This document shows positions 5,615-29,725 of a stretch of 64,000 nucleotides of DNA, piece by piece. The stretch comes from Acidobacteriota bacterium. Its GTDB lineage: Bacteria; Acidobacteriota; Thermoanaerobaculia; Gp7-AA8. Position numbers and translations under genes: made by a program. Below the pieces are notes generated by a model that saw only the letters and a list, made by a program, of their open reading frames with translations, searched no databases and had not been told where the DNA came from. The DNA is taken from assembly GCA_021781455.1 (NCBI GenBank), contig JAJXWV010000078.1, positions 3,991 through 67,990 of the forward strand. The letters are read 5' to 3'. Each line of letters starts with the position of its first letter. Within the stretch, counting starts at the first letter, position 1.

Positions 5615-5743
5615 CGTCGGCTGCGTCTCCTTTCATCGTTGTGAGCAAGAGATCGGCCCGGTTCATTTCCTCTTGCCGCGGATCGCCTCTTGCACGCTGC
5701 TGGTGACTGGCCCGAGATCCAACGACCAAAAGGAGAAAAAGTC

Positions 5744-6349
5744 ATGGCACAAACGAGAGACGAACGAAGTGGCAGAGGTGACATCGAGCGAGCACAGCCG
5801 CTGCAGCGCGAGCAATCCGGACGTTCCGACGAGGGACGGCGAATTCCGGCGCGGCGCGAGGCGCGGGCGTTGAGCCCGTTAGATCCGTTCGGGCTCACGC
5901 GCTCGCTCCGCAGCGAGATGGACCGTTTCTTCGACAACCTCGGCCTCCGCGGCAGCCTGTTTCCGTCCCTCAGCTTCGAGCGCGGGTTCGACGAGATGGA
6001 GCGTGCCGTCTGGTCGCCGCAGATCGAGATGTACGAGAAGGACGGCAAGATACACATCTGTGCCGATCTGCCGGGCCTGAAGAAGGACGACGTGAAGATC
6101 GACCTCAAGGACGACGTCCTGACCATCCACGGCGAGCGCCGGCGTGAGCAGCGCGATGAGGAAGGCGGATGGACCGAGCGCAGCTACGGCAGCTTCCTGC
6201 GATCGATCCCGCTTCCCGAGGGGATCAACGCCGAGAGCGCCAGCGCCCTGTTCGAGAACGGCGTTCTCAACATCATCTTCGATGCACCGAAGCGGCAGGA
6301 ATCGAGAGGGAGGTCGATCGAGATCCGCGAGGGCAGCGTGAGGAAGTGA
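5744..6349 (+). CDS. Small heat-shock protein, Hsp20/alpha-crystallin family
   Basis: Alpha-crystallin domain (…PQIEMYEKDGKIHICADLPGLKKDDVKIDLKDDVLTIHGERR…SIPLPEGINAESASALFENGVLNI). Start chosen at MAQTRDE, preceded by AAAGGAG; the longer ORF-track start is rejected. Confidence 0.85.
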   Translation: MAQTRDERSGRGDIERAQPLQREQSGRSDEGRRIPARREARALSPLDPFGLTRSLRSEMDRFFDNLGLRGSLFPSLSFERGFDEMERAVWSPQIEMYEKDGKIHICADLPGLKKDDVKIDLKDDVLTIHGERRREQRDEEGGWTERSYGSFLRSIPLPEGINAESASALFENGVLNIIFDAPKRQESRGRSIEIREGSVRK

Positions 6350-6360
6350 AGTGAGCGATA

Positions 6361-6449
6361 GGTCCCAGAGGTCTCAGAGGTCCCATCTGTCCCATGTTTC
6401 CCATTCGACGGGACCTCTGGGACTGACGGGACCTCTGGGACTCGTGGTC
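6361..6449. terminator. Double hairpin (2x CCCAGAGGTC then 2x GACCTCTGGG) between convergent hsp20 and receiver genes; likely bidirectional terminator or REP-like element
   Basis: ggtcccagaggtctcagaggtccc … gggacctctgggactgacgggacctctgggac read directly. Confidence 0.5.
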
Positions 6450-6864
6450 ATGGGCGCAATGGTCGTGCGTTCCGCGCGCAGTCGCGCACGGCGTCGCTGA
6501 GCGCCTTACGCGCAAACGGCTTGTGCAGAACGCGAAAGACACCGGCATCATCGAGGCGCTGCACGAGATCGTCGTCGTTTTCCGTGGTCGCCGCCACGAC
6601 GTGCTGCAGTGCGTCTTCCGATCCCGCCAGGAAATCGAACACGGGCGCGAATCCGGCGACCGGGCTCGGCTCAACGACCACCACGGCATAGGCGATCGTC
6701 CTCAGCCGCGCGATGGCCAGGCGCGCATCCGACACTTCGTCCACGACAAAACCCTCATTGCGGAGAATGGATGCTGCCACCCCGCAGAAGTCGGGATTGT
6801 CGTCGACAATCAGCACCGCCTGCCGCAACGCGATCTCCTCTTCTCGACGCTCCTGGCTCGTCAC
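6448..6864 (-). CDS. Atypical single-domain receiver (CheY-like) with Glu at the phospho-acceptor position
   Basis: LIVDDN (acidic pocket), HVVAATT (Thr) and VLHKPF (Lys) are conserved, but the acceptor Asp position reads AVVVVEPSP. Last gene of the kaiC operon. Confidence 0.7.
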   Translation of the reverse strand: MTSQERREEEIALRQAVLIVDDNPDFCGVAASILRNEGFVVDEVSDARLAIARLRTIAYAVVVVEPSPVAGFAPVFDFLAGSEDALQHVVAATTENDDDLVQRLDDAGVFRVLHKPFARKALSDAVRDCARNARPLRP

Positions 6865-6884
6865 GGTGAGTCACCGTCGAGGAC

Positions 6885-8453
6885 TCATGCCGTCGCTTCC
6901 ACATCGATGTTGAATCTCCTGACGAAGATCTGCTGCAGCTCCTCCACGCGGATCGGCTTCGTGAGATGCGCGTCGAAACCGGCCGCCGTGGCCTTGTCCT
7001 TGTCGTCGGCCTGGCCGAACCCGGTCAGCGCGATCAGCAGGATCGGATCGGACAGGTCCTCCCGCACGCGCCGCGCCACTTCGTAACCGTCGAGGCCGGG
7101 CATGCCGATGTCGATGATGGCCACGTCGGGACGGCTCTCCGTGATCCGGCGCAACCCGCTGTGGCCGTCCGAGGCCGTTTCCACGAGGTGCCCGAGCTTC
7201 TTGAGCTTGAGCTGCAGCAGGTCGCGGATGTCGGCGTTGTCGTCGACGATGACGATGCGCCGGGTGGCGCAGACGAGCTCCGCCGCCGTCGGCCGCGAGG
7301 GCGCCGCCGCCGGCAGGACCGCCTGTTCTTCCGCCAGCGGAAGGGTGACCGTGAAGGTGCTCCCCTGGTCCAGCCCCGGGCTTCGAGCCTCGACCTCTCC
7401 GCCGTGAAGCTGCACGAGAGTCCGCACGAGATGCAACCCGATGCCCATGCCTCCCTGAGCGCGTCCGATGGCGTTCTCGGCCTGGCTGAACAACTCGAAG
7501 ATCGAGTCGATGCGCTGCCGCGAGATGCCCACGCCGGTATCCGAGACCACGATGGCCGCCTTCCCCTCGCGCTTTTCCGTCCGGACCGCGATGCGACCGC
7601 CGGCGGTGGTGTACTTGAGAGCGTTGGTGATCAGGTTCGTGATGATCTGCTCGACGCGCAAGGCATCCGCGTGCACGACCAGAGGCTCGTCGGCGGCCTG
7701 GAAGCTGAGGCCGATCTCGCGCCGGGAGCTGTCGCCCTGCTGCGACTCCACACATTGCCGGACCACGGAGCTGAGCTCGAGCAGGCCGAGCTTCAAGGCG
7801 ATCTTCCCGGTGGTGATGCGCGACAGGTCGAGCAGATCGTCGACCAGACTGGAGAGATGGTGGGCCTGCCGCTCGATGCGCTCGGCATGCTGGGCATCGA
7901 GGGTGGCCGTCAGGGGATCGACCATCTGCGCGGCCAGGACGATCGCGCCTAACGGATTGCGCAGCTCGTGCCCCAGGATCGCCAGGAAGCGGTCGCGCTC
8001 GGTGATGCGGTCCTCGAGCTTGGCCAGAAGGTCGCGGATCTCGTATTGACGCGTCCGGGCCCTGGCCACCGCCTGAACGATGCTCACCACGCTCTTCATT
8101 CGCACCGGCCGGTCGACCAGCGTGACGTTGGCGCGCGGCCCGAGCTCCTCGAGCCGGCGCAGATAGCGGTGATCCGAATCGGGCCCAGTAAAGATCACGA
8201 TCGGGAAGTCGGACCACAAGGGCTGGTCGTCGATGAAGCTGCGCAGCGTCCGCACCACCGGCGGAACGAGGACTTCCTCGGTCGTCAGAAGCGCCAGGGA
8301 TTCGTTCCCCAGCCCCCGCTCCAGCTGCGAAACGTGCGGCACTTCGCCGGACGCCACGCCCGCGGCCTGCAGCACCCCCTTCAACAGCTCCGCGTCACGA
8401 CGGACCGGAGTGCAGATCAGTGCGGGCGAAGAGTGGACCGCCTGTTCGATCAT
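6885..8453 (-). CDS. Hybrid sensor histidine kinase: N-terminal pseudo-receiver, HisKA, HATPase_c, C-terminal canonical receiver
   Basis: H-box ILGHELRNPLGAI. ATPase N/G boxes ITNLITNALKYT, VSDTGVGI. C-terminal receiver with DDN…VAIIDIGMPGLDG…LTKP. The N-terminal ~130 aa is receiver-like but has T in place of the acceptor Asp (LALLTTEE). Confidence 0.85.
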   Translation of the reverse strand: MIEQAVHSSPALICTPVRRDAELLKGVLQAAGVASGEVPHVSQLERGLGNESLALLTTEEVLVPPVVRTLRSFIDDQPLWSDFPIVIFTGPDSDHRYLRRLEELGPRANVTLVDRPVRMKSVVSIVQAVARARTRQYEIRDLLAKLEDRITERDRFLAILGHELRNPLGAIVLAAQMVDPLTATLDAQHAERIERQAHHLSSLVDDLLDLSRITTGKIALKLGLLELSSVVRQCVESQQGDSSRREIGLSFQAADEPLVVHADALRVEQIITNLITNALKYTTAGGRIAVRTEKREGKAAIVVSDTGVGISRQRIDSIFELFSQAENAIGRAQGGMGIGLHLVRTLVQLHGGEVEARSPGLDQGSTFTVTLPLAEEQAVLPAAAPSRPTAAELVCATRRIVIVDDNADIRDLLQLKLKKLGHLVETASDGHSGLRRITESRPDVAIIDIGMPGLDGYEVARRVREDLSDPILLIALTGFGQADDKDKATAAGFDAHLTKPIRVEELQQIFVRRFNIDVEATA

Positions 8454-8478
8454 GGCGCGGCTCTTTCTCCCCCGATGC

Positions 8479-9963
8479 TCAAGGCGCGCCCATCCCTAAC
8501 GGCGGGTTCACTTCTTCGATGACCGGCGTGCCGGAAAGGACGCCGCGGAATCGCGTGAGCGCCGAGCCGATCTTGATCCCGTGCGCGGTGATCTGCAGCT
8601 CGCGAATCGAGGTCTCGTGAGCGCCGCTCCGCTTCTTGATCACCGAAATCGCCTTCCGGACCTGCCCCTGCGCTTCGAAATACCGGAGAAGAACCACGGA
8701 GTCGGCCAGATAGCTGATGTCCACGGTCGTCATCATCTGGCTACCGAGAAGACCGTGCTGCGCGAACACGAGAATCGTGGCGATGCCGTGCTGTCCGAGA
8801 AACGCCAGCAGCTCGTGCAGGTGGAGAAGGAGGTACTTCTCCTCGGGCATGGCATTGAGATAGCCGTTCAGGCTGTCGATGATCAGGACGCGCACGTCGT
8901 GATGCTCGACGGCCTCGCGAACCAGTTGCGCGAACTCGCCCGGCTGCAGCTCCGCCGGATCGACCTGCTGCACCATGATCTTTCCTGCCGCCACGAGCTC
9001 GGTCAGGTTGTAGCCGATGGCGTCGGAGCGATTGAACAGCGTGGTCAGGCTCTCGTCGAACGTGAAGAAGGCCGCGCCCTCGCCGCGCTGTGCCGCCGCC
9101 ACCGCGTACTGAGTGGCCAGCGCCGACTTCCCCGATCCGGCCGGACCCATGATCAGCGTGCTGGTGCCGCGGTCGAGGCCGCCGCCGAGAAGCGAGTCGA
9201 CTTCCGGGATCCCGCTGGAGACGAAGCTCTGCATGACGCGCATGCGCGACTCCGCCGCCACCAGGCGCGGGTAAACGACGATGCCCCCGGTGATGATGTT
9301 GAAATCGTGGTAGCCGGCGCGGAACTTCAGTCCGCGCACTTTCACCATCTGCAGCCGCCGGCGGGCCATGCCGTAATTCGGAGTGAAGCGCTCCATCTCC
9401 AGCACGCCGTGAGGGACGCTCTGCAGCTGCATGTCCTTCACGTCGGAGGTGCGGTCGTCGAGCAGCAGCGCCGTGATCCTGCGGGAATCGAAGAACTGCT
9501 TCAGGGCCAGGATCTGCTTCCGGTAGCGCAGAGAGCTCTGCGCCAGCAGACGAATCTCGGAGAGCGAGTCGAGCACCACCCGGTCGGGCGCGGCCTCGTC
9601 GATGGCGTCGAGCATCTTCTTGACCGCCGGACCGAGCTCGATCTCCGAGGCCTGGAAAATCGTGGAGTCTTCCTCGGCCAGCTCGTCCTCTCCGACCAGC
9701 TGCTCGACGATCTGGATGGGATCGAGATTCCATCCGTGCGATCGGGCCACGGCCCGCAGGTCGCGTTCCGATTCCGACATGGTGATGTACAGACCCCGCT
9801 CGCCGTTCCTCGCTCCCTCGAGCAGAAACTGCAGGGAGAGCGTCGTCTTGCCGACGCCGGGGTCGCCCTGGACGAGGTAAATGTGATTGCGCGGAAAGCC
9901 GCCATTCAGGATCCGGTCGAGCCCCTCGATTCCGGTGGCGGCGGCGTCGTCTTCAAAAGACAT
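8479..9963 (-). CDS. kaiC: KaiC-family double-domain RecA-like ATPase
   Basis: Two tandem KaiC/RadA-like domains, each with a Walker A (GDPGVGKTTLSLQF; GPAGSGKSALATQY), Walker B and catalytic Glu. 494 aa. AAGGAG before the ATG. Confidence 0.85.
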   Translation of the reverse strand: MSFEDDAAATGIEGLDRILNGGFPRNHIYLVQGDPGVGKTTLSLQFLLEGARNGERGLYITMSESERDLRAVARSHGWNLDPIQIVEQLVGEDELAEEDSTIFQASEIELGPAVKKMLDAIDEAAPDRVVLDSLSEIRLLAQSSLRYRKQILALKQFFDSRRITALLLDDRTSDVKDMQLQSVPHGVLEMERFTPNYGMARRRLQMVKVRGLKFRAGYHDFNIITGGIVVYPRLVAAESRMRVMQSFVSSGIPEVDSLLGGGLDRGTSTLIMGPAGSGKSALATQYAVAAAQRGEGAAFFTFDESLTTLFNRSDAIGYNLTELVAAGKIMVQQVDPAELQPGEFAQLVREAVEHHDVRVLIIDSLNGYLNAMPEEKYLLLHLHELLAFLGQHGIATILVFAQHGLLGSQMMTTVDISYLADSVVLLRYFEAQGQVRKAISVIKKRSGAHETSIRELQITAHGIKIGSALTRFRGVLSGTPVIEEVNPPLGMGAP

Positions 9964-10063
9964 CGCTGTTTCTCCTTGTGGTGCGACCCGTTGGTGGTTC
10001 TCTTTTCAAAATCCCCGCCCACCGGCACGAGAGATGCTCTCGGAGATTTCGGGAGGCCGCCGG

Positions 10064-11002
10064 ATGGCGTCATCCACCGCAGTCAAAATTCAAAATCCAA
10101 GCCGACTCGACCTTTTGCGCGAGGCGCACCTTCTCGGACCTGCGAACGGCGAAGCCTTCGACCGGCTGACCCGGATGGCCTCGAGGCTTCTCGATGCGCC
10201 GGGCGCGCTGATCTACCTGGCCGGGGAAGGGCACGGGTTCTACGGAAGTGTCATTGGAGGCGTTGCGGCGCCGCATGCTGACGTCGGGGGCGAAGGCCTT
10301 CTGCAGCGGGCGATACGCTCTCCGGCTGCGGTGGCCATCGATGACATCCATGCGGCGGGGATCGTCTCCGATCCTCTGCTCGGCGACTTCCATGCGCAGG
10401 CCTTTCTCGGTGCGCCTCTCGTCGTTCGCGGAATCGCCCTCGGCTCGTTCATCGTCGTCGACGTCCGGCCGCGGCACTGGTCGGAGCCGGAGATCCGCCT
10501 GATCGGCAGGCTCGCGCAGTCGGCGGCCGGCGAGATCGAGCTTCGTCTGGCCGCAACGGCAGTGGAGAGCTCGCGCGAAGGGACGCCGAAAGAAGCCTCG
10601 GCGAGCAACCGCCGCCGCGTCCTCATTGCCGAAGACGACGCGCCGATGCGAAAGCTCATCGTGCACTGCCTCGCCGGCGACGATTACGAAATCGAGGAGG
10701 CCCACGACGGGCGGGAGACCCTGGAGATCCTCCGGAAGCAACGGGTGGACGCCCTGGTTCTCGACCTGATCATGCCCGATCTCTCCGGCTGGGACGTCCT
10801 GCAGAAGCGCACCGAGGACGAGCGTCTGCGCCAGATTCCGGTGATCGTGGTCAGCGGCCGGCGCGGCCCCGACATCGCCCGAGCCGTGGCCTTCGGAATC
10901 TCGGGACTCCTGCCGAAGCCGTTCGAGGCCGGCGACCTGCGCGAGCTGGTCCGGTCGTGCCTGACCGAGAATCGAGCCGGCGGCCGCATCGCGGCGCACT
11001 GA
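10064..11002 (+). CDS. GAF-domain response regulator (GAF + canonical receiver)
   Basis: N-terminal GAF-like region (…GALIYLAGEGHGFYGSV…FLGAPLVVRGIALGSFIVVD…) followed by a receiver with AEDD…LVLDLIMPDLSGWD…LPKP. Start chosen at MASSTAV after GGGAGG; the ORF-track N-terminus would overlap kaiC. Confidence 0.7.
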   Translation: MASSTAVKIQNPSRLDLLREAHLLGPANGEAFDRLTRMASRLLDAPGALIYLAGEGHGFYGSVIGGVAAPHADVGGEGLLQRAIRSPAAVAIDDIHAAGIVSDPLLGDFHAQAFLGAPLVVRGIALGSFIVVDVRPRHWSEPEIRLIGRLAQSAAGEIELRLAATAVESSREGTPKEASASNRRRVLIAEDDAPMRKLIVHCLAGDDYEIEEAHDGRETLEILRKQRVDALVLDLIMPDLSGWDVLQKRTEDERLRQIPVIVVSGRRGPDIARAVAFGISGLLPKPFEAGDLRELVRSCLTENRAGGRIAAH

Positions 11003-11399: not shown

Positions 11400-13568
11400 A
11401 TGTCGTCCACGTCCGCCGGGATCCAGATCGTCGAGTTCATTGCTGCGCTTTCGCGCGCCTGGAAAAAGCTCGCCGCCTACCCGCCCGGCCATCCCGAGGT
11501 CGTCACCTCGCTCCAGGCGCTCAATCAACGGCTGGCCGAACTTCGCGGACCGGCCGGCGAAGTCGTTCTCGGCGTGGGCGCCGATGCGCTCGTCTACGGC
11601 GCCCTCGACATCACCTCCGCCGGCGCCCGGAAGCTCGCCCAGGCGCTCTACTCCCGCGGAGTGGCCGTGCTGCGCCTCGGAGCCGACACCAACATGCAGG
11701 AGATCGAAACGTTCCTGCGCCTTCTCGGCACGGGCGGCCCCGTTGATCCGAGGCGCGTGCTCTGGGAGGAGCTGACCGCCAACGGGGTGATCAACATCAA
11801 CCTGCAGCCGGTCAGTTACGGCACCGTCCAGGTCACGGACGGAGTGAGGGAACATCCGGAGAAGGAAGAAGAACGTTCGCTGTGGGACGAAGTGCTGAGG
11901 GCGCTCCTGAACAATCAGCAGTTCTCGGCGACATTGCGCGACCTGCCGCCGCACATCACTTCGGCCGACAAGCTGGCGAAGATGATCGCGGAGTACGCAG
12001 CGACGCCCGAGGAACAGGCCAGGCCGGTCGATGCGCAGGCCAGCTCCGGAATTCAGTTGCGCGAGCGCAGCGAAGAGGCCTTCCACCGCTTTTTCTTTCA
12101 GACCGTCGGCCACCACATTGCCACGATGACGGGGCAGAAAAAGCAGAACTCGCTGGAGCAGGCGGTGCAGTTGCTGCGCAGCCTGCCGGAGCAGCTCCGG
12201 CGTCCGCTGATCCGGGCCATCGCCGAGGCGCTGGCCTCGGACGACGGCTCGGCGGCGCTCCTGCGCGATTTCGCGAGTGAGCTTCCGAACGACGAAGTGC
12301 TCGACGCCCTTCGCTATCTCTCCTCGATGGACAAGCTGTCCAATCAGTCGCTGACGCTGCTGCATTCGATGTCGACGACGGAGGCCTCGCGGACCCAGGC
12401 GGCATCGAAAGAAGTGCTCGCGGATGTCATTCGTTTGTTCGGTGAAGACGACGTCGCTCGATTCAACCCCACCGAGCACGATGTGACGTTGAAGAGGATC
12501 TCGGTCGAGATTCCAATCGTTCCACCCGAAGCGATGCAGGGAATCGAGCCGGCCGGCGACCGCATCGATCCGGCCGCGAATGTCGAGATCCTGCGGCACT
12601 TCTTGGACGTGCTGCTCCTCCTCCTGGTGGGCCGTGACACGACGGCACCGCCCGCGACGACTCTGGCCCATCTGGAAGGAATCTTCCCGCCCCTTCTGGC
12701 AGCCGAGGAATACGACCATCTCGGGATCGTGGTGCAGCGCCTTCTCGGAGTGGCGACGTCGACTCCAGACGAGGAAGTGAAGACCGCCGCGCACGCATCG
12801 CTCCGCCGCATCAGCGACCTGATCGTCGAGCAGGCCACGGGTGCGTCGGACGAAGGCCTCACGAAGATGCAGCGGCTGATCGCCGCGCTTGACGTTCATG
12901 CGCGCCAGAGCTTCCTGGAAAAACTGGCACTGGAGAGCAACCGCTCACGACGACGGCGGCTCTTGAACTACATCGCCGCGCAGGGGACGTCGATCGTCCC
13001 TCAGGTGATCGCCTATCTGAACGACGAGCGATGGTACGTCGTGCGGAACATGATCGTGCTGCTCCGTGCGGTGAAGGACCAGACCTCGCTGCCCGAGATA
13101 CGCAGGCTGGCGCGCCATTCCGATCTTCGCGTGAGGATGGAGGCGCTGAAGAGTCTTTTCGCCATGGACGCGAACGTCCCGCCGACTCTCCTGGACAACC
13201 TCTTCAACGACACCGATCCGAAGGTCGGACAGACCGCGGTCGCACTGGCCGGAAACTACGCCATCAAAGAAGCCGTCGACCCACTCCTGCGGATCATCCA
13301 GGACCACGATTACCTCGGCGCCAGGCGGCCGTTGCGCGTCAAGGTCATCAGCGCACTCGGCGAAATCGGCGATCCGCGTGCCCTCGCGGCGATGCAGAAG
13401 TTCTTCACTTTCTCTTTCCTCCCCTGGCCGCCGCGGGAGGAACGCTATGCGGCCTGGCAGTCGCTCGCCGGATATCCGCCGGAAGCGCGGAAGCCACTCG
13501 TGGAGTCCGGGCTCAAGTCGTCTGACGGTCATGTGCGCGAGATCTGTTCGCGGATGAGGAACAGCTGA
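11400..13568 (+). CDS. Large protein with a novel N-terminal 'YPPGHP' domain, central helical region and C-terminal HEAT/PBS-lyase-like repeats
   Basis: 722 aa. The C-terminus has tandem HEAT-like repeats (…DLRVRMEALKSLFAMD…DPKVGQTAVALAGNYAIKEAVDPLLRII…RVKVISALGEIGDPRALAAM…). The N-terminal ~110 aa aligns with the N-terminus of the next gene. Confidence 0.6.
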   Translation: MSSTSAGIQIVEFIAALSRAWKKLAAYPPGHPEVVTSLQALNQRLAELRGPAGEVVLGVGADALVYGALDITSAGARKLAQALYSRGVAVLRLGADTNMQEIETFLRLLGTGGPVDPRRVLWEELTANGVININLQPVSYGTVQVTDGVREHPEKEEERSLWDEVLRALLNNQQFSATLRDLPPHITSADKLAKMIAEYAATPEEQARPVDAQASSGIQLRERSEEAFHRFFFQTVGHHIATMTGQKKQNSLEQAVQLLRSLPEQLRRPLIRAIAEALASDDGSAALLRDFASELPNDEVLDALRYLSSMDKLSNQSLTLLHSMSTTEASRTQAASKEVLADVIRLFGEDDVARFNPTEHDVTLKRISVEIPIVPPEAMQGIEPAGDRIDPAANVEILRHFLDVLLLLLVGRDTTAPPATTLAHLEGIFPPLLAAEEYDHLGIVVQRLLGVATSTPDEEVKTAAHASLRRISDLIVEQATGASDEGLTKMQRLIAALDVHARQSFLEKLALESNRSRRRRLLNYIAAQGTSIVPQVIAYLNDERWYVVRNMIVLLRAVKDQTSLPEIRRLARHSDLRVRMEALKSLFAMDANVPPTLLDNLFNDTDPKVGQTAVALAGNYAIKEAVDPLLRIIQDHDYLGARRPLRVKVISALGEIGDPRALAAMQKFFTFSFLPWPPREERYAAWQSLAGYPPEARKPLVESGLKSSDGHVREICSRMRNS

Positions 13569-13571
13569 GCC

Positions 13572-14657
13572 ATGGAACGCCTCGCCAGCATCATCGCCGC
13601 GGCCATCAACATGGTGGCACTGTATCCGCCGAATCACCCACGTGTGCAGCACGCCATCCTGGAGGTTCTGCAGGCCTTTCGAGAAGCGCTGCAGACCACG
13701 GGGGAGGAAGCGGCCTCGTATCTGCTCGTCGGCGACGACCTGCTGGCAGCCAACCAGGTGATCCGCGAAACGACACTTCCGGTCCGCGAATTCATCGGGG
13801 TGCTGAAGCAGCGTGGAGTGGAGAGCCTGGCACTCCTGCCGGGCGCCGATGAGCAGGAGATCATGCACCTGGTCACCGGCCTGGCCACGGGAGAAGCGCT
13901 GGAGTCGTCCACGCACGTCCAGCTCGGCACCGTTCACCTGGTCATGGACGAGAAACCGAAGGACGAAGAGCTGCGGCAGGACCTCGTCACGCAGTTCGAG
14001 CTCATGCGAGAGGCCTGGGCGCGCTTTCGCGTGGAACGAAAGCTTCCCGTCGATCAGCTGGAAGAGCTGGTGTGGAGCCTGATCGATTCGGTGGGGTCCA
14101 CGGCCCGGGCCATGTTGCCGCTGGCGAGATTGAGAGAGCTCGACGAGTACACGTTCGTCAACGCCATCAACGTTTCGCTGCTGGTCCTCGCCCAGGCCCG
14201 CTCACTCGGGATCTGGGGGCCCATGCTGCACGCCTTCGGCATGGCCGGCCTCCTCCACGACATCGGCAAGATGTCGATTCCGCCGAGCATTCTGAACAAA
14301 GCCGGCAAGCTGGACGACGACGAGTGGAAGGTCATGATGAGCCATCCATCCGAGGGAGCGTCGTACCTGTTGCAGATGGAGGGAGCGCCGCCGCTGAGCA
14401 TCATCGTGGCGTTCGAGCACCATCTCCGGCATGACGGCCGGCCCAACTACCCGCTCATCCGCGGGCGTCACAGTCCGCACCTGGCCAGTCGCATGACGGC
14501 CATCGCCGATGCCTACGACGGCATGTGCGCGACGCGGCCGTATCAGACCTCGGTCAGCCGCACCGCGGCCATGGAAGTCCTGAAGGCCAGGGCCCAAACG
14601 TTCTACGACCCGATGCTCGTAGCGAATTTCATCCGGATCGTCGGCGCAAACGCCTGA
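13572..14657 (+). CDS. HD-GYP domain c-di-GMP phosphodiesterase with the same novel N-terminal 'YPPxHP' domain
   Basis: HD-GYP signature HDIGK…EHHLRHDGRPNYP. The N-terminus (IIAAAINMVALYPPNHPRVQHAILEVL…) is homologous to the N-terminus of the preceding gene. Only 3 bp separate it from the upstream stop. Confidence 0.8.
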   Translation: MERLASIIAAAINMVALYPPNHPRVQHAILEVLQAFREALQTTGEEAASYLLVGDDLLAANQVIRETTLPVREFIGVLKQRGVESLALLPGADEQEIMHLVTGLATGEALESSTHVQLGTVHLVMDEKPKDEELRQDLVTQFELMREAWARFRVERKLPVDQLEELVWSLIDSVGSTARAMLPLARLRELDEYTFVNAINVSLLVLAQARSLGIWGPMLHAFGMAGLLHDIGKMSIPPSILNKAGKLDDDEWKVMMSHPSEGASYLLQMEGAPPLSIIVAFEHHLRHDGRPNYPLIRGRHSPHLASRMTAIADAYDGMCATRPYQTSVSRTAAMEVLKARAQTFYDPMLVANFIRIVGANA

Positions 14658-14665
14658 ACGAGATC

Positions 14666-14770
14666 GCAGATCACAGATCGCAGATCGCAGGTTTCCTCTC
14701 CGGCGAGCTGCGAACTGAGACCTGCGACCTGAGAGTCGAGACCCGCGACCTGAGACCCGAGACCTGCGAC
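14666..14770. repeat. Two short tandem-repeat arrays upstream of glgX: ~3x CAGATCGCAGAT-like and ~4x GAGACCYGCGACCT-like
   Basis: gatcgcagatcacagatcgcagatcgcag … gagacctgcgacctgagagtcgagacccgcgacctgagacccgagacctgcgacc read directly. They end 15 bp before the glgX RBS AAAGGAG. Confidence 0.6.
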
Positions 14771-14787
14771 CTTCAAAGGAGACGACG

Positions 14788-16914
14788 ATGACCACGACTG
14801 AAATGAGTCCCGTCCCTGATCATGCGCTCAGGACGGAAGCCCCGCCGCGTCAGCACGCCGTCGGGGCCGGACATCCTCACCCTCTCGGCGCGCGTGTCGA
14901 TCGGCAGGGCGTCAACTTCTCAGTCTTCTCCCAGAACGCCACGGGAGTCGAGCTGCTGCTCTTCGAGGGGCACGATTCGCCGCAGCCGTACCAGACGATC
15001 CGCCTCGACCCGGTGCAGAACCGCTCGTACGGCTTCTGGCATTGCCACGTGGCCGGGCTGAAGGCCGGCGCCCATTACGCCTATCGCGTCGAAGGGGAGT
15101 GGTCGCCGGAAGCGGGCCATCGCTTCAACCGCAACAAGGTCCTGATCGACCCGTGGTCCTTCGGCAATAGCAACACGCTCTGGGTCCGCGGAGACGCCTG
15201 CAGCATGGACGACAACGTCGCCACCTCGATGCGCAGCGTGGTCATCGACGCCGGCTCCTACGACTGGGAGGGCGATCGTCCGCTGGACCGCCCCATGCGC
15301 GAATCGATCATCTACGAGATGCACGTCCGCGGCTTCACGCGATCGGCGCGCATCGCCCATCCCGGAACCTTTCGCGGCGTGATCGAGAAGATTCCTTATC
15401 TGCGAGAGCTCGGCATCACCGCCGTGGAGCTGCTCCCGATCATGGAGTACGACGAGAAGGAGATCCTCCGCCTGGCGCCCGACGGCACTCCCCTCACCAA
15501 CTACTGGGGCTACAGCACCATCGGATTCTTCGCGCCCACCAGCAACTACTGCGTCTCTTCGGAGGCCGGCGGCCAGCTCGACGAGTTCCGCGACATGGTC
15601 AAGGCCCTGCATAAGGCCGGCATCGAAGTCATCCTCGACGTCGTCTTCAACCACACCAGCGAAGGCAACCACCTCGGGCCGACCATCAACTACAAGGGCT
15701 TCGCCAACTCCATCTACTACCACCTCTCGCCGTTGAACCGCGCTTACTACATGGATTACAGCGGCTGCGGCAACACGATGAACTGCAATCACCCGCTCGT
15801 GCAGAAACTGATCGCCGAGAGCCTGGAGTTCTGGACGCGCGACATGCACGTGGACGGCTTCCGCTTCGACGAGGGATCGATCCTCTCCCGCGGTGAAGAC
15901 GGCGCCCCCATGGCCCACCCGCCCATCATCTGGCGCATCGAGTTCGACGAGGCCCTGGCGGACACGAAAGTCATCGCCGAAGCGTGGGACGCGGCCGGCC
16001 TTTACCAGATCGGCTACTTCCCGGGGTTGCGCTGGGGCGAGTGGAACGGCCGCTATCGCGACGCCATCAGGCGCTTCGTGGCCGGCCAGCCCGGTATCGT
16101 CGGCGAGGTGGCCACGCGCATTGCCGGGAGCTCCGATCTCTACCAGCAGAACGGTCGCGCGCCTGCAAACAGCGTCAACTTCATCACCTGCCACGACGGC
16201 TTCACGCTCAATGACCTCGTCAGCTACAACGACAAGCACAATGAGGCCAACGGCGAGGACAGCCGCGACGGAGTCAACGAGAACTGCAGCTGGAACTGCG
16301 GAGTCGAAGGGCCGACCGAGGATCCTGCCGTCGAAGCCCTGCGCAACCGGCAGGTGAAGAACTTCGCGGCCATCCTGCTGCTGTCCGAAGGCGTGCCCAT
16401 GATCCTCGGCGGAGACGAGATCCGCCGGACCCAGCACGGGAACAACAACGGTTACTGCCAGGACAACGAGACCAGCTGGTTCGACTGGCGACTGTTGAAC
16501 GAACACTCCGACGTCTTCCGCTTCTTCAGCCACATGATCGCCTTCCGCAGACAGCAGGTGCCCCTCAAGCGCCTCTCGTTCTTCACCGGTCGCGTCAACG
16601 AGCGCGGTCTTCCCGACATCGCCTGGCACGGCTGTGCGCTCGGCAGTCCCGGATGGCACGACCCGTGGTCCCGCGTGCTCTCCTACACCATGGGCGGCGA
16701 GGGGAACGACCTGGACCTGCACGTCATCCTCAACATGTCGGACGAGACCCTCGACTTCGAATTGCCGAAACCCGGAAAGCGCTCGTGGCATCGCTTCGTC
16801 GACACCTCTCTGCCGTCGCCGCATGACATCTGCGAGCCGGGCCAGCAGCCAGTCGTGCCGGATGGCAAGGTCGCCGTCACGCCGCGCACGGTGGTCGTGC
16901 TCGTGTCGCGGTGA
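14788..16914 (+). CDS. glgX: Glycogen debranching enzyme (isoamylase-type GH13)
   Basis: N-terminal CBM48-like region plus GH13 catalytic motifs (DVVFNHT, GFRFDEG, EAWD, CHDGFTLND). 708 aa. Strong RBS. Confidence 0.85.
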   Translation: MTTTEMSPVPDHALRTEAPPRQHAVGAGHPHPLGARVDRQGVNFSVFSQNATGVELLLFEGHDSPQPYQTIRLDPVQNRSYGFWHCHVAGLKAGAHYAYRVEGEWSPEAGHRFNRNKVLIDPWSFGNSNTLWVRGDACSMDDNVATSMRSVVIDAGSYDWEGDRPLDRPMRESIIYEMHVRGFTRSARIAHPGTFRGVIEKIPYLRELGITAVELLPIMEYDEKEILRLAPDGTPLTNYWGYSTIGFFAPTSNYCVSSEAGGQLDEFRDMVKALHKAGIEVILDVVFNHTSEGNHLGPTINYKGFANSIYYHLSPLNRAYYMDYSGCGNTMNCNHPLVQKLIAESLEFWTRDMHVDGFRFDEGSILSRGEDGAPMAHPPIIWRIEFDEALADTKVIAEAWDAAGLYQIGYFPGLRWGEWNGRYRDAIRRFVAGQPGIVGEVATRIAGSSDLYQQNGRAPANSVNFITCHDGFTLNDLVSYNDKHNEANGEDSRDGVNENCSWNCGVEGPTEDPAVEALRNRQVKNFAAILLLSEGVPMILGGDEIRRTQHGNNNGYCQDNETSWFDWRLLNEHSDVFRFFSHMIAFRRQQVPLKRLSFFTGRVNERGLPDIAWHGCALGSPGWHDPWSRVLSYTMGGEGNDLDLHVILNMSDETLDFELPKPGKRSWHRFVDTSLPSPHDICEPGQQPVVPDGKVAVTPRTVVVLVSR

Positions 16915-17946: not shown

Positions 17947-18008
17947 TGCGCTTTGCCAAAGACTTGCGCTCCGCCCTCTGCGCTCCAGACATCGAGGAGT
18001 GACCGATC

Positions 18009-20324
18009 ATGACCGAAGAAACAAGCAGGAAGACCCGCCCCGAGACGCTGACCGTCGGGATCGCGGGATCGAGGCTCACCACGACGCAGCGGGAAGTCCC
18101 AGCCAACGATCCGCCACCGCTGCCGCCTAACAGCGATCTCCACGTCGTCGGCAAGCGCGTTCCGCGCATCGACGGCGCCCGCATCGTCACCGGCGCGGCC
18201 CGATACACAGCCGACATCCGGCTGCCGGGCATGCTCTACGCGCGGATGATCACCTCGCCGCATCCGCACGCGCGCATCGCCTCGATCGACACCGCGGCCG
18301 CTGCGGCCTGTCCTGGAGTGCGCGCCGTGCACGTGCTCGATCGCTACGAGAAGGATCCCATCGTCCGTTATGCCGGACAGCCGGTCGCCGCCGTCGCTGC
18401 CGTCTCGCAGGCGGCGGCCGACGAGGCCGCGCGCCTGGTGCGGATCGCCTGGGAGCCGCTCCCCTTCGTCGTCGACGTCGAGTCTGCACGCGCCGCCGAT
18501 GCTCCGCTCGTCTATCCGCCGAATCCCGACGACAAGGTGCCGCGCAAGGGCAATGTCCGCGGTCCGGTGAAGCGAGGACCGCGCGGCAAGCCCGCCGGAG
18601 ACGCCCTCGACGCTCTCGCCAATTCCCCCGTCGTCGTCGACCACACCTATCGCACGCAGGTCCAGACGCACGCCACGCTCGAGACTCACGGCGTCGTCGC
18701 CGACTGGCAGCCCGGCTCCGCGATCGTCTACGCATCCACGCAGGCCACGGTCGCCTTTCGCGACGAGCTCGCCGAGGTGTTCGGAATCCCCAAGGCCCGC
18801 ATCCGCATCATCACCGAGTACATGGGCGGCGGCTTCGGCTCGAAGCTCGGAATGGGACCGTATGGCGTGCTCGCCCTTCATCTCTCGAAAAAGGCGGGCA
18901 GGCCGGTCCGCCTGATGCTCGATCGGCGCGAGGAGCAGCGCTGCACCGGCAACCGCCCCAGCTCCGTCCAGCACCTCCGCCTCGGCGCAACCAGAGACGG
19001 CAAGCTGACGGCCATTCACCTGTCGAGTTACGGCACCGGCGGCGTGGGCGGCGGCGCCGGCAGCGCCGGCCCCGCGCAGAACATGTACGACTGCCCGAAC
19101 GTCGAGACCGAAGAAGCGGACGTGTTCACGCACGCCGGCCCGTCGGCGGCCATGCGCGCTCCCGGCCATCCGCAGGGTTGCTTCGCGCTCGAACAGTCGA
19201 TCGATGCAGTGGCCGAGAAGCTCGGCATCGACCCTCTGCGACTGCGCGACCTCAACGACAGCAACGCCGCCCGCCGCGAGGAACGGCGCATCGGCGCCGA
19301 GATGATCGGCTGGTCTGCCCGCCACAAGCCGGGCGCCGACAAGGGAACCATCCGGCGCGGCATCGGCGCCGCGCAGTCGATCTGGTACCGCTTCGTGCGG
19401 CTCGACTCCGCCTGCGAAGTGCGGCTGGACCGCGAAGGGTCGGTGGAGATCGTCAGCGCCGTCCAGGACATCGGCACCGGCATCCGTACCGTCCTCGCGC
19501 AGGTCGTGGCCGAAGAGCTGGGCATCGATCCGCGCGGGGTCATCGTCAGGATCGGCGACACCTCCTTCCCCGCCGGACCCTCGTCGGGCGGCAGCCTGAC
19601 CACGGGCTCGATCACGCCCCCGGCGCGCAACGCCGCTCACGGCGTGCGCACGCAACTCCTCGAGGTCGCCGCTCCGCTGCTGAAGGCGGATCCTGCCCAT
19701 CTCGACCTGCGCGAAGGACGCGTGGTGGTCAAGAGCGACCCCTCGCGCAGCATCTCCCTGCGCGAGGCGGCGGCGAAGATCGGCCCCGACCAGATCGCCG
19801 TTCGCGCGCGCCGAAGCGAGGATTACGGCACCCCGCCCCTGCCGCCCGGTCAGACCTCCGGAATGGGCCTGGAGATCTACGGCGGCGTCCAGTTCGCCCA
19901 GGTGGCCGTCGACACGGGAACCGGCGCGATCAAGGTGGAGCGGGTGGTGGCGGTGCACGACTGCGCGCGTCCGATGAACCCGCTCACCATCGAGAGCCAG
20001 ATCAAGGGCGGCATCATCCAGGGAATCTCGTATGCCCTGTTCGAGGACCGCACGCTCGACGCGAACGCCGGGCTGATGGTCAATCCGAACCTGGAGATGT
20101 ACAAGATCGCCGGCTCGCGCGAAACGCCGGTCATCGACGTTCACCTGCTCGAGGAATACATCGGCCGCACTTCGACCGACGCCGGCGGCATCGGCGAGCC
20201 CGCCACGATTCCGACGGCCGCGGCCGTGGCCAACGCCGTCCACAACGCCCTCGGCGTGCGCATGCTGGAGCTGCCGATGACCCCTGACCGCGTGCTCAGT
20301 GCACTGCGCACCGTGAGGAGCTGA
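18009..20324 (+). CDS. Molybdenum hydroxylase large molybdopterin-binding subunit
   Basis: 771 aa with N-terminal a/b-hammerhead and MoCo-binding regions typical of the XDH/CoxL/PaoC family (GKRVPRIDG…, GGGFGSK…, catalytic Glu region …DCARPMNPL…). Confidence 0.85.
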   Translation: MTEETSRKTRPETLTVGIAGSRLTTTQREVPANDPPPLPPNSDLHVVGKRVPRIDGARIVTGAARYTADIRLPGMLYARMITSPHPHARIASIDTAAAAACPGVRAVHVLDRYEKDPIVRYAGQPVAAVAAVSQAAADEAARLVRIAWEPLPFVVDVESARAADAPLVYPPNPDDKVPRKGNVRGPVKRGPRGKPAGDALDALANSPVVVDHTYRTQVQTHATLETHGVVADWQPGSAIVYASTQATVAFRDELAEVFGIPKARIRIITEYMGGGFGSKLGMGPYGVLALHLSKKAGRPVRLMLDRREEQRCTGNRPSSVQHLRLGATRDGKLTAIHLSSYGTGGVGGGAGSAGPAQNMYDCPNVETEEADVFTHAGPSAAMRAPGHPQGCFALEQSIDAVAEKLGIDPLRLRDLNDSNAARREERRIGAEMIGWSARHKPGADKGTIRRGIGAAQSIWYRFVRLDSACEVRLDREGSVEIVSAVQDIGTGIRTVLAQVVAEELGIDPRGVIVRIGDTSFPAGPSSGGSLTTGSITPPARNAAHGVRTQLLEVAAPLLKADPAHLDLREGRVVVKSDPSRSISLREAAAKIGPDQIAVRARRSEDYGTPPLPPGQTSGMGLEIYGGVQFAQVAVDTGTGAIKVERVVAVHDCARPMNPLTIESQIKGGIIQGISYALFEDRTLDANAGLMVNPNLEMYKIAGSRETPVIDVHLLEEYIGRTSTDAGGIGEPATIPTAAAVANAVHNALGVRMLELPMTPDRVLSALRTVRS

Positions 20325-27081: not shown

Positions 27082-28062
27082 TCAGACGAACATCGCGTCG
27101 GCGAGCCGCTGCAGCATCGGCAGGCCTCGAATCTCGGTCTCGTACAGCGGCACGATGGCGCGGACGCTTCCGTCGAACTTCTGCCACACGGTGCGCATGT
27201 GCTCTTCCTGCATGGTCACGCGATTCTTGACGAAGTCCGCGGATTGCGCGTCGAGTGAGCTCTTGTCGATGAGCATGTTGACCAGGACGCCTCCCACCGG
27301 AATCCCGAAATCGTGGAACCACTGGATGAAGCGCGTGATGACGGCGATCGGAAGCGCTTCCGGCAGCGCGACGAAGAAGAACGAGGTCTTCTCGGGATCC
27401 GTGAGCAGCACGCGACCGTGCTCCATGCGGTCGCGGAAGGAGACCAGGTAGTCCATGAGGGGATCCTGCTGCTTCTTCTTGGTGAAGGAGAGCAATTCGC
27501 GCAGGGTTCTCGCCTCCTCGCGGCTCTTGAGCATCTTGTTGACCCAGAGCGAGTAGACCTTCGACATCCCGAGAAGACGGCGTGCGTTCGCCGTGGGAGC
27601 AGTGTCGAAGACATAGACGTCGTACTCGTTCTTGAACATGAGATCGATCATGTTCTCGAACATCGCCGACTCCTCGAAGGCCGGGTTCATTGTGGCCGAG
27701 GCGACGAAGTCTTCGGCCTTGGTGGAGATGTCCGCGAATTTGAGGAACCACTGGATCTTTTCGCGAATCTCGGTCTTCGAGCGCTCGATCGTGTCCTTGG
27801 TCTCGATCTCGTAGGCCCAGAGGTTGGGCACTCCGTCCACAGCTGTGTGTTTGCCGAGGACGTTCTGACCGAGAAGACTGGTGAGGCTGTGGACCGGGTT
27901 GGTCGAGGCGAGCATCGTCCGGCGTCCCTGCCTGGCCAGCCAGACCGCGGTGGCCGCGGCGAAGACCGTCTTTCCGACGCCGCCCTTGCCCCCGAAGAAG
28001 ACGAACTTGAGATTGCCGTGCGCCTTCAGGTAATCGCGCATGGATGTCTGAATGTCGGGCAT
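27082..28062 (-). CDS. ArsA/Get3-family ATPase (deviant Walker A; signature degenerated to DTAPTA)
   Basis: FFGGKGGVGKT P-loop. STNPVHSL matches the STDPAHS(L) region. DTAPTANARRLL sits in place of DTAPTGH. 326 aa, single-domain (Get3-like size). GGGGGAGGG RBS. Confidence 0.8.
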   Translation of the reverse strand: MPDIQTSMRDYLKAHGNLKFVFFGGKGGVGKTVFAAATAVWLARQGRRTMLASTNPVHSLTSLLGQNVLGKHTAVDGVPNLWAYEIETKDTIERSKTEIREKIQWFLKFADISTKAEDFVASATMNPAFEESAMFENMIDLMFKNEYDVYVFDTAPTANARRLLGMSKVYSLWVNKMLKSREEARTLRELLSFTKKKQQDPLMDYLVSFRDRMEHGRVLLTDPEKTSFFFVALPEALPIAVITRFIQWFHDFGIPVGGVLVNMLIDKSSLDAQSADFVKNRVTMQEEHMRTVWQKFDGSVRAIVPLYETEIRGLPMLQRLADAMFV

Positions 28063-28079
28063 GGTCTTACCCTCCCCCG

Positions 28080-29072
28080 TTAGCGGGCCGTGACGAGCGC
28101 CTCGCCATACATGATTCCGGCGAGTTTCTCGATCATCGGCAGGCCGGTGACGTCGCGCTCCAGTTCCGGAACGTAGGCCAGAACGTCGTTGCCGAACGTC
28201 GCGCGGATGGTGTCGAGGTACTTGTCCTGCATCAGGATGCGATTGCGCAGATAGTCGGGGATGGACTGTTTGAGCAACTCGTGGGGAATGACGCGATTCA
28301 CCACATAGCCCCCAATGGGGACGTCGAACTGCGCGAACAGCTTTGCCGCCTTCTGAGTGTCGATGATGATCATGTCCTCGGGCACGACCACGAAGAAGAA
28401 AGCCGTCTTCGCCTTGTCCGTAAGAATGGAGGACGAGGCATTGATCCGTCCCTTGATGTAAACGAGCTCATTGAGGATCTCGTCCTGTTCCGTCTGTTTT
28501 TCTCTCTTGAGACGGCTGACCATCTCTTCGTACTCGCGCATGTCCTCGCGCAGCTTGGTCACCTTGTTGATCCACTCGTCGTAAACCTTGGCCATGCTCA
28601 GGTAATACAGAGCGTGGCCGAGAGGAACGAGGTCGTAGATGTAGTAGTCATAGCTGCCCTCGACCACGACGTCCACCACGGCGTCGAAAATCGCGCTCTC
28701 CTCCATGGCCGGTTCTGCACTGGCCGCCTGGATGTAATGCTCGATCTCCTCCGGCACTGACGGGAGGCCGTAGCGGTCGCGGATCTTCGCCCGAATCTCC
28801 TCCTGGTACGCCTTGATGTGCGAGTCGGCGTCGATCTCCTGGGCCCAGAGGTTCTCCATGATTTTCACGGGGCCTTTTCCGAAGATGTCGCGCTGGAAGA
28901 TATCGGTGAGCGACGCCTGCGGGTCGACCGAGAAGACCAGGACCTTCTTGCCCTGCGCGGCGAGCCAGTAGGCCGTGGCGGCCGAGAAAGTGGTCTTGCC
29001 GAGACCTCCCTTGCCGCCGAACATGATGTAGCGACGATCGGGGTTCTGTTGAAAAACCTCTTTCATCCCCAT
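28080..29072 (-). CDS. ArsA/Get3-family ATPase, second paralog (signature DLVPLGH)
   Basis: MFGGKGGLGKT P-loop. VDPQASLTD. DLVPLGHALYYL. 330 aa. Its stop is 18 bp from the downstream paralog. Confidence 0.8.
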   Translation of the reverse strand: MGMKEVFQQNPDRRYIMFGGKGGLGKTTFSAATAYWLAAQGKKVLVFSVDPQASLTDIFQRDIFGKGPVKIMENLWAQEIDADSHIKAYQEEIRAKIRDRYGLPSVPEEIEHYIQAASAEPAMEESAIFDAVVDVVVEGSYDYYIYDLVPLGHALYYLSMAKVYDEWINKVTKLREDMREYEEMVSRLKREKQTEQDEILNELVYIKGRINASSSILTDKAKTAFFFVVVPEDMIIIDTQKAAKLFAQFDVPIGGYVVNRVIPHELLKQSIPDYLRNRILMQDKYLDTIRATFGNDVLAYVPELERDVTGLPMIEKLAGIMYGEALVTAR

Positions 29073-29117
29073 TGAGTCCTCACTCTCTATGTCCTAATGC
29101 CTTCGTTTTCTCGCGCG

Positions 29118-29402
29118 TTAGAACATGGCATCGGATACGTCCTTCTCGCGGAGCATCCGGCGCTTCCATGTCGCAATCTGCGGGACGACATAGGGCAGCA
29201 ACCTGAGGCTGTAATAAGGAGGGAGAATGGGGATTCCGAGCATGTCGCCCATGGTGATGAGGATGAACAGGTGCTCCATGGAGGCGCGTGTCCGTAGGGC
29301 GGCTCGGCTCATGTCGTGTGCCGACATGCCGTAAATGGTTTCCTTGAAGCCGCTCCATAATCCCTTGAAGCCGCCGGGCCTTTCCAATTTCTTGTCTGTC
29401 AC
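29118..29402 (-). CDS. Small hydrophobic protein, paralog A (partner of the Get3-like ATPases)
   Basis: 94 aa, GTG start after AAGGAG. Core RASMEHLFILITMGDMLGIPILPPYYSLRLLPYV…WKRRMLRE. Clearly paralogous to the next gene. No recognised family. Confidence 0.6.
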   Translation of the reverse strand: MTDKKLERPGGFKGLWSGFKETIYGMSAHDMSRAALRTRASMEHLFILITMGDMLGIPILPPYYSLRLLPYVVPQIATWKRRMLREKDVSDAMF

Positions 29403-29419
29403 TGCTGTCTCCTTTGGCC

Positions 29420-29676: not shown

Positions 29677-29725
29677 TCCAGCTCCCGTGCTTCACCGCCG
29701 GACCGCTGCCTCCCGGAGGACGACG

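Follow-up and report, generated by a model that had tools for sequence, protein, structure and literature searches.

The closest described relatives of the locus analysed here are the KaiC-like signalling systems of Pseudomonas. Terrettaz et al. (bioRxiv 10.1101/2022.01.26.477890; later Environ Microbiol 2023) defined the group I KaiC-like proteins by the residue pair TY or SY at the positions of S431/T432. According to the same work, the Pseudomonas KaiC homologues self-associate and bind the neighbouring kinases, strongly so in the case of the group I protein of P. protegens, and their phosphorylated forms build up in stationary phase. A single-domain receiver of P. putida binds both KaiC and the kinase, and residues 1-138 of this kinase are sufficient for the interaction with KaiC. 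Mutants showed altered responses to osmotic stress, oxidative stress and sulfur starvation. Operons consisting of KaiC, kinase and receiver without KaiB were already described there, and KaiB was present in none of 1255 Pseudomonas genomes (bioRxiv 10.1101/2022.01.26.477890). Here we analysed a comparable locus in a stretch of 64,000 nucleotides from an Acidobacteriota bacterium (contig JAJXWV010000078.1; the whole stretch is called the window), in which a gene for a two-domain KaiC-like protein is followed by the genes for a hybrid histidine kinase plus one single-domain receiver and is flanked by a divergent gene for a GAF-receiver protein. The kinase begins with a pseudo-receiver domain, and a kinase with this domain is encoded directly downstream of kaiC in all related loci that could be assessed.

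The likeness to group I of Pseudomonas (P. protegens CHA0) comprises the double-domain KaiC with SY/TY, the kinase directly downstream, a single-domain receiver nearby and the lack of KaiB. In addition, the kinase of a related locus of P. syringae (L009) starts with the same pseudo-receiver as the kinase of the window. In contrast to the Pseudomonas systems the host is an acidobacterium, and the kinase contains no PAS domain, the pseudo-receiver being fused straight to the DHp domain. Further differences are the Glu that occupies the acceptor site of the single-domain receiver, the extra divergent GAF-receiver gene and the absence of a visible EPS-sortase neighbour.

The KaiC-like protein contains the tandem RecA-like domains CI and CII, both with an intact Walker A motif (GDPGVGKT and GPAGSGKS). 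Alignment to the KaiC proteins of the PDB placed S63-E64 at the catalytic pair E77/E78 of CI and D303-E304 at the pair E318/E319 of CII. At the phosphosites S417 corresponds to S431 and T412 to T426, and Y418 replaces T432. These residues recur in the subfamily: across 24 homologues CI reads L/M-S-E-S/T, with one L-A-E-S exception, CII reads F-D-E, and a Ser/Thr at the S431 equivalent and the Thr at the T426 equivalent are kept. The phosphosite (S/T)-Y, here as D-I-S-Y, was found in all 32 homologues examined, which include 8 further sequences besides the 24 from the genome collection; the motifs L-S-E-(S/T) of CI and F-D/E-E of CII are likewise conserved over the 32. Since this pair is the "TY or SY" of the definition of Terrettaz et al., the KaiC-like protein matches group I as judged from its sequence; the other marks of the group are present as well, with a kinase in the same predicted operon, a single-domain receiver nearby and no KaiB match in the window. 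The nearest relatives are encoded in metagenome-assembled genomes of Thermoanaerobaculia (Acidobacteriota) and share 79-85% identity in KaiC, in line with the original prediction of a KaiC-based two-component module in a non-cyanobacterium.

With the cyanobacterial KaiABC/SasA/CikA system the locus shares the double-domain P-loop KaiC with a phosphosite Ser and a kinase coupled via a small, non-phosphorylated N-terminal domain. It differs in the S-E pair of CI, in the Tyr at the position of T432 and at the C-terminus, as the chain ends at residue 494, just past the aligned core, and contains neither the A-loop nor the KaiA-binding tail. The scores against the circadian KaiC equivalog models PRK09302 / TIGR02655 of NCBIfam were 278.2 bits (cut-off 408) and 176.8 bits (cut-off 546.25); both are below the cut-off, which rules out membership in the circadian equivalogs. 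As predicted, the 64-kb window contains no kaiA or kaiB match: a search with KaiA, KaiB and SasA-N query sequences not drawn from a database revealed no similarity (best E 3.2). With the same kind of queries, and without a Pfam KaiB scan of every open reading frame (ORF), the 37 related loci, 395 kb in all, gave no KaiB-like match either.

The kinase combines an H-box histidine (H162 in the motif HELRNP), a HATPase_c domain and a receiver with an acceptor Asp, and is a hybrid histidine kinase. Its C-terminal receiver carries the residues that are invariant in the receiver alignment and is canonical, as originally stated. Residues 1-145 gave no Pfam match, PF00072 included, and a single-sequence phmmer search with the N-terminus against the PDB also remained without a match. 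An AlphaFold2 (AF2) model built on an alignment of 59 homologues shows a (beta-alpha)5 topology (pLDDT 89.3, pTM 0.85). Comparison of this model with the PDB using Foldseek listed 50 matches, all of them receivers, with DctD, HupR, PhoB and MtrA as the best ones (TM up to 0.74). Using hhalign, a profile of 21 members of the domain matched a profile of 12 canonical receivers with a probability of 95.9% and an E-value of 5.5e-9, and a search of the profile against the PDB sequences yielded receivers only among the 60 matches shown, the best of which was the D53E mutant of PhoB (E 1.9e-6). The AF2 fold, Foldseek, hhalign and the profile search therefore agree with the prediction that the kinase begins with a pseudo-receiver.

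The two profile alignments have the same register: T15/P16 stand at the position of the DD pair, E59 at the acceptor, T89 at the conserved Thr and R115-P116 at Lys-Pro. Except for T89 the catalytic quintet is lost, and the domain is therefore a pseudo-receiver. Both exchanges, Asp to Glu and Lys to Arg, belong to those listed as common for pseudo-receivers of bacteria (PMC12632262). The original prediction had assigned a Thr to the acceptor position and was probably wrong by one residue. The strand ends assigned by DSSP in the model leave an ambiguity of one residue between T58 and E59, but both independent profile alignments chose E59, and from the sequences the acceptor equivalent is most likely E59 and not T57 or T58. 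Position 58 is variable in the family (T, S, A, V, G or C), and E59 and E60 are conserved to at least 90%, with Asp-Asp instead in Gemmatimonadaceae. Invariant in the family are D20, W80, S81, P84, R115, P116, R133, R135 and Q136, and its motifs are APxGRD, (T/S)EEAL, QPxWSDxP, GNVTxxERP and RARxRQY. In an AF2 model of residues 1-240 (pLDDT 89.4), alpha5 of the pseudo-receiver is part of one unbroken helix that extends from residue 119 to 176 through H162 into helix 1 of DHp. According to this model, there is a rigid connection between the pseudo-receiver and the H162-bearing helix of DHp.

The pseudo-receiver had been likened to those of CikA and KaiA. Both cyanobacterial proteins do contain pseudo-receivers, but neither was among the best 60 profile matches or the best 50 Foldseek matches, all of which were ordinary receivers, and we rejected a specific kinship. 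Moreover, the pseudo-receiver of CikA is located at the C-terminus and binds KaiB, not KaiC, whereas that of the window kinase is N-terminal. The sensor domain of SasA has a KaiB-like thioredoxin fold, in contrast to the receiver fold found here, which shows no similarity to SasA-N. ShkA of Caulobacter resembles the window kinase in that a receiver fold without catalytic residues is contained in a hybrid kinase, and the Glu-for-Asp substitution is shared with the pseudo-receivers of the plant pseudo-response regulators and of fungal Rim15p. Unlike the ShkA-type pseudo-receivers, the domain of the window is N-terminal and not internal, has motifs of its own (QPxWSDxP, GNVTxxERP, RARxRQY) and is tied to KaiC genomically; it is too divergent to be detected by Pfam PF00072.

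The linkage of kaiC and the pseudo-receiver kinase was analysed in both directions. For the forward test we used 25 loci with KaiC homologues, most of them with 49-55% identity, of which 23 could be assessed because the contig continues beyond kaiC. The hosts include Burkholderiales, Caulobacteraceae, Terriglobales, Nevskia, Rhizobiales and Pseudomonas syringae as well as Planctomycetaceae, Steroidobacteraceae, Chthoniobacteraceae, Hyphomicrobiales and Gemmatimonadaceae. The gene directly downstream of kaiC begins with the pseudo-receiver in all 23 loci, and the linkage extends over Acidobacteriota, Pseudomonadota, Planctomycetota, Verrucomicrobiota and Gemmatimonadota. For the reverse test nine kinases with the pseudo-receiver, located on six metagenomic contigs and three plasmids, were picked regardless of KaiC. 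An intact kaiC gene was present directly upstream in seven cases and a remnant of kaiC in one more. Four of the six metagenomic contigs contain the gene for the two-domain KaiC upstream of the kinase, typically with overlapping stop and start codons, and the pair was found on all three plasmids inspected, namely pAt of Agrobacterium fabrum C58 and two Sphingomonas plasmids. The remnant (L027, 4479-4977) consists of residues 6-104 fused to residues 429-494, with about 320 codons deleted, and the kinase next to it is split by frameshifts; this suggests that the ATPase is decaying while the kinase gene persists.

Altogether, the pseudo-receiver domain was found on 218 plasmid records. In plasmid annotations the KaiC homologue appears as "ATPase domain-containing protein" and the gene after it as "response regulator", "PAS domain-containing sensor histidine kinase" or "ATP-binding protein"; the pair of A. 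fabrum C58 is labelled merely with the first two of these terms. Many plasmid records of A. fabrum show two separate pseudo-receiver matches, which indicates that pAt encodes the kinase twice and possibly contains a second module. In a library of representatives at 50% identity, the pseudo-receiver profile matches 2,634 clusters at E <= 1e-30; almost all of these matches are located at the very start of the protein, and the proteins have several hundred to about 1,000 residues. This threshold was used because the profile extends into the linker and DHp, so that the counts at weaker thresholds are inflated by generic kinases.

The core of the linked kinases is of the HisKA, the H-D-F-N-N or the HisKA_3 type, with or without PAS. 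As the core varies and the pseudo-receiver is constant, the pseudo-receiver is a portable element that travels with KaiC. The pair of KaiC and pseudo-receiver kinase is the rule for this KaiC subfamily. The partner set, which had been regarded as unusual, is thus common, given the pair in 23 of 23 loci, the plasmid records and the known Pseudomonas operons without KaiB. Conservation of the gene order in relatives, a check proposed with the original prediction, holds for kaiC and the kinase in the 23 assessable loci, and the Glu-receiver as third gene recurs in L001 and L032.

Some further observations concern the kinase genes of these loci. In L014, L017 and L022 the gene for an extra hybrid kinase, consisting of core and receiver, directly precedes kaiC in the same orientation, so that the order in L017 is kinase, kaiC, pseudo-receiver kinase. 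A word-indexed search of the kinase family (P0001-P0107) yielded mostly fragments shorter than 275 aa, and in the metagenomic contigs inspected (L026-L031) annotation breaks the kinase gene into two to four neighbouring calls. The split calls look like frameshift errors of the assemblies, which hide the full architecture from automated annotation. The kinase architectures were read from the loci, as the database entries are mostly fragments.

The single-domain receiver encoded by the third gene matches PF00072 above the cut-off of 30.2 bits. It retains the DD pair (D21, D22), T93 and K115, and alignment to 6qrj and to D57 of CheY confirmed the predicted Glu at the acceptor position (E65). In the alignment of its family all 12 members, the L001 orthologue included, have E-P-S-P at the column of CheY D57; D21, D22 and T93 are invariant and K115 nearly so, with Arg in one member. 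The family is tiny, with 10 clusters in a search of 5.8 billion proteins plus the L001 orthologue. The small receiver is encoded behind the kinase not just in the window but also in L001 and L032, and is absent from this place in L002, L003 and L023. L001, L003 and L032 contain the divergent gene for the GAF-receiver, and L023 and L028 lack it. L032, with a KaiC of 77% identity, repeats the whole four-gene layout. Both the Glu-receiver and the GAF-receiver are lineage-specific additions, confined to some Thermoanaerobaculia, to a conserved core of two genes. Two of the four receiver-fold domains of the cluster lack residues of the phospho-acceptor chemistry.

Taken together, we consider it reasonably probable that the locus is a group I KaiC-like signalling operon as in P. 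protegens, whose kinase would read the state of KaiC directly via its pseudo-receiver. From what is known of the family, the KaiC-like ATPase is probably a hexamer that hydrolyses ATP and may autophosphorylate around S417, T412 and Y418. The hybrid kinase encoded next to it would directly sense the nucleotide or phosphorylation state of KaiC, and this reading would most likely be done by the N-terminal pseudo-receiver, a conserved domain of 130 residues. Since alpha5 runs unbroken into the helix with H162, docking of KaiC could shift the balance of kinase and phosphatase activity mechanically; the signal that sets this balance would pass via alpha5 to DHp. Phosphoryl groups would be transferred to D448 of the kinase itself and then perhaps to a canonical receiver such as that of the GAF-receiver protein. 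The Glu at the acceptor position means that the small receiver takes up no phosphoryl group by the normal chemistry; probably this protein serves as an adaptor or competitor that cannot be phosphorylated and may bind the kinase, KaiC or both. As output, adaptation to stress or stationary phase is most likely, and not a circadian rhythm. The original prediction had named an hourglass- or stress-type module, and the sole experiments on relatives point to functions in stationary phase and under stress.

Genes for chaperones and other stress proteins were seen in passing, without statistics, in the neighbourhood of the module. In the window an Hsp20 gene (5690-6349, + strand) is convergent to the operon, and Hsp20 genes follow the kinase in two loci of Gemmatimonadaceae (L021, 4711-5118; L025, 4894-5301). 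GroES-GroEL genes flank the module on the Sphingomonas plasmids (L036, L037), and J-domain and cold-shock genes flank it on pAt of A. fabrum (L035). This recurrence suggests a stress-related output.

A broader interpretation, which we hold tentatively, is that the pseudo-receiver is a dedicated KaiC-docking domain missed by Pfam, which would define a widespread KaiB-independent route from KaiC to two-component signalling and in which the near-invariant acidic residue at the acceptor position of the domain and the invariant Glu of the accessory receiver would act as a phospho-mimic lock for the recognition of KaiC. If so, the docking domain would be a functional analogue of the KaiB-like domain of SasA, and the locked domains would have a counterpart in the plant clock, whose pseudo-response regulators contain Glu. 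Several points weigh against a direct reading of KaiC by the pseudo-receiver and the phosphotransfer that follows from it. Transfer from a hybrid kinase to a terminal receiver normally requires an Hpt protein. One of the nine kinases of the reverse test (L026) has no kaiC nearby. As CI has Ser where its first catalytic Glu would be expected, the ATPase behaviour may differ from that of cyanobacterial KaiC, and no autophosphorylation was detected in vitro for LbKaiC2, a cyanobacterial KaiC-like protein encoded 3 nt upstream of a kinase gene. Finally, the KaiC-binding fragment of P. putida was mapped in a group III kinase and was called PAS by the authors (bioRxiv 10.1101/2022.01.26.477890).

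The observations on LbKaiC2, which also has low ATPase activity, and on the Ser of CI, which is found throughout the subfamily, would fit a KaiC-like protein that is a steady-state sensor or scaffold for the ATP/ADP ratio or proteotoxic stress and gates the kinase without being a timer, with phosphorylation incidental or absent. The recurring chaperone genes agree with this possibility, and Terrettaz et al. leave undecided whether KaiC measures time or senses ATP (bioRxiv 10.1101/2022.01.26.477890). We regard it as possible but rather doubtful, as the Ser/Thr at the S431 equivalent and the Thr at the T426 equivalent are conserved and the group I KaiC of P. protegens shows three phospho-forms which accumulate with the age of the culture (bioRxiv 10.1101/2022.01.26.477890). 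The pseudo-receiver might also be an intramolecular regulator, autoinhibitory or for dimerisation, with KaiC acting on another surface of the kinase or via the small receiver. The best structural matches of the domain are receivers with long alpha5 linkers (DctD, HupR, NtrX), and receivers of this type dimerise. The rigid helix between alpha5 and DHp in the model fits such a function too, and according to the literature ShkA and CikA each have a pseudo-receiver that inhibits the kinase domain of the same protein; in addition, the single-domain receiver of P. putida also binds KaiC (bioRxiv 10.1101/2022.01.26.477890). This explanation is nevertheless unlikely in our opinion: the pseudo-receiver is the sole feature of the kinase that co-varies with the adjacency of kaiC, whereas core, PAS and receiver content vary, and the N-terminal fragment of 138 residues from the KaiC-linked kinase of P. 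putida is sufficient for KaiC binding (bioRxiv 10.1101/2022.01.26.477890). Intramolecular regulation and docking of KaiC are compatible and not mutually exclusive.

Non-cyanobacterial KaiC proteins with nearby kinase genes and proposed functions as timers or in stress are also known from the KaiBC systems of Rhodopseudomonas palustris, Rhodobacter sphaeroides and Legionella, which use KaiB. The portion of the genome inspected for kaiB is 64 kb, and the locus could be an ordinary hourglass of this type with kaiB beyond the window and a kinase that reads the KaiB-KaiC complex as CikA does. We consider this very improbable. In the KaiBC systems kaiB normally adjoins kaiC, and the KaiC of R. sphaeroides has an extended C-terminus (568 aa); the window has neither an adjacent kaiB nor such an extension. 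The searches of the window and of the 37 related loci, the scores below the circadian cut-offs and the 1255 Pseudomonas genomes without KaiB, in which the same KaiC group is present (bioRxiv 10.1101/2022.01.26.477890), all point in the same direction. The chance of a mere juxtaposition of a RecA-superfamily ATPase and generic two-component genes is practically negligible. Two-component genes are abundant in the window, for example a second hybrid kinase at about 48.2-49.3 kb, but the pairing in 23 of 23 loci across phyla, the translational coupling and the second occurrence of the four-gene layout in L032 refute a chance adjacency. We therefore prefer a group I signalling operon in which the kinase would read KaiC directly.

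An ORF check of the window recovered all four genes at the coordinates of the original prediction; the features of the locus are compiled in Table 1.

Table 1. Coordinates of the genes, domains and other elements of the kaiC locus in the window.
Feature	Position	Strand	Properties and evidence
kaiC-like gene	8479-9963	-	494 aa; two PF06745 KaiC domains, Pfam E 1.2e-79
KaiC CI domain	~9265-9939	-	Pfam KaiC
KaiC CII domain	~8524-9228	-	Pfam KaiC
Hybrid histidine kinase gene	6885-8453	-	522 aa; pseudo-receiver, DHp, catalytic domain, canonical receiver
N-terminal pseudo-receiver of kinase	8019-8453	-	Residues 1-145; AF2, Foldseek and profiles
DHp (HisKA) domain with H162	7806-7997	-	Pfam HisKA, residues 153-216
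HATPase_c catalytic domain	7332-7667	-	Residues 263-374; Pfam E 1.5e-27
C-terminal canonical receiver of kinase	6927-7256	-	Response_reg, residues 400-509, Pfam E 1.1e-22; D448, T477, K499
Single-domain Glu-receiver gene	6448-6828	-	126 aa from TTG 6828; Pfam 44.5 bits
Imperfect hairpin from 9- and 18-nt repeats	6350-6447	-	Direct and inverted repeats, RNA fold
Divergent intergenic region, kaiC / GAF-receiver gene	9964-10063		~100 bp; sequence
GAF-receiver gene (GAF + canonical receiver)	10064-11002	+	312 aa from ATG 10064
GAF domain of GAF-receiver	~10151-10537	+	Pfam 5e-13
Receiver of GAF-receiver	~10619-10951	+	Pfam Response_reg 1.5e-21; acceptor Asp in LDLIMP

The gaps of 25 and 20 bp given originally are correct for the ORFs as they stand. 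The first one, between kaiC and the kinase gene, is 25 nt long and contains the purine-rich ribosome-binding site GGGGGAGAAAGAG upstream of the kinase ATG. The second one has 20 nt if the small receiver starts at GTG 6864, up to which its ORF reaches (6448-6864; 138 aa). The start at TTG 6828 is more likely, because it is preceded by GAGGAG and a database protein with 99% identity starts there, and the gap is then 56 nt. Upstream of kaiC, AAGGAGAAA is located 6 nt from the ATG. The ORF of the GAF-receiver has a full extent of 9887-11002 on the + strand. Its divergent orientation was predicted correctly, and the start could be refined to ATG 10064, which is more likely and has GGGAGG upstream; the divergent intergenic region is therefore about 100 bp long. 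Presumably this region holds both divergent promoters. A scan with the sigma-70 consensus found no site in 9964-10063, but such a scan is uninformative at 65% G+C, and the same is true for the scan with the intrinsic-terminator consensus.

Directly 3' of the stop codon of the small receiver, between the operon and the convergent Hsp20 gene, 98 nt can be folded into a hairpin without a U-tract (-54.8 kcal/mol, z = -5.3). It is built from two copies of GACGGGACCTCTGGGACT and their imperfect complements and is probably the 3' boundary of the operon transcript. Another intergenic block of short-period repeats is located at 14661-14772, between an HD-domain gene and the next gene (14788-16914, + strand). 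With units of 14 and 21 nt and an imperfect inverted repeat of 35 nt it resembles the hairpin element in style, but the sequence units differ.

Downstream of the GAF-receiver gene, a HEAT-repeat protein of 722 aa and an HD_5 (HD-GYP-like) protein of 361 aa are encoded 3 nt apart (11400-14657, + strand). The related KaiC loci L001-L025 contain no HEAT or HD match, and the two genes are therefore probably outside the KaiC module. The second hybrid histidine kinase of the window (~48216-49331, + strand) has a core with 35% identity and a C-terminal receiver; it contains no pseudo-receiver at the N-terminus and has no KaiC neighbour. The mean G+C content of the window is about 0.65, with 0.703 at 18001-20000 and 0.594 at 28001-30000.

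The locus is an ordinary example of a stress-signalling system that has been studied in part, and not a new kind of system. The identification of the N-terminus of KaiC-linked kinases as a pseudo-receiver seems to be unrecorded, as we found no such description in the searchable literature. The Pseudomonas preprint never uses the term "receiver" and labels residues 1-138 of the P. putida kinase as "PAS" (bioRxiv 10.1101/2022.01.26.477890); our results suggest that this label of the KaiC-binding fragment should be re-examined. At the level of the domain, the observation is a useful lead and not a new category. KaiC homologues without KaiA and KaiB are very common outside the cyanobacteria, and how they signal is a question of the field; among the priorities for later work, Terrettaz et al. 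list the missing input as well as the intermediates (bioRxiv 10.1101/2022.01.26.477890). The pairing of KaiC with the pseudo-receiver kinase extends from Acidobacteriota to A. fabrum C58, and the pseudo-receiver on a continuous helix offers a concrete interface, which can be mutated in genetically tractable hosts, for the connection of the state of KaiC with phosphotransfer.

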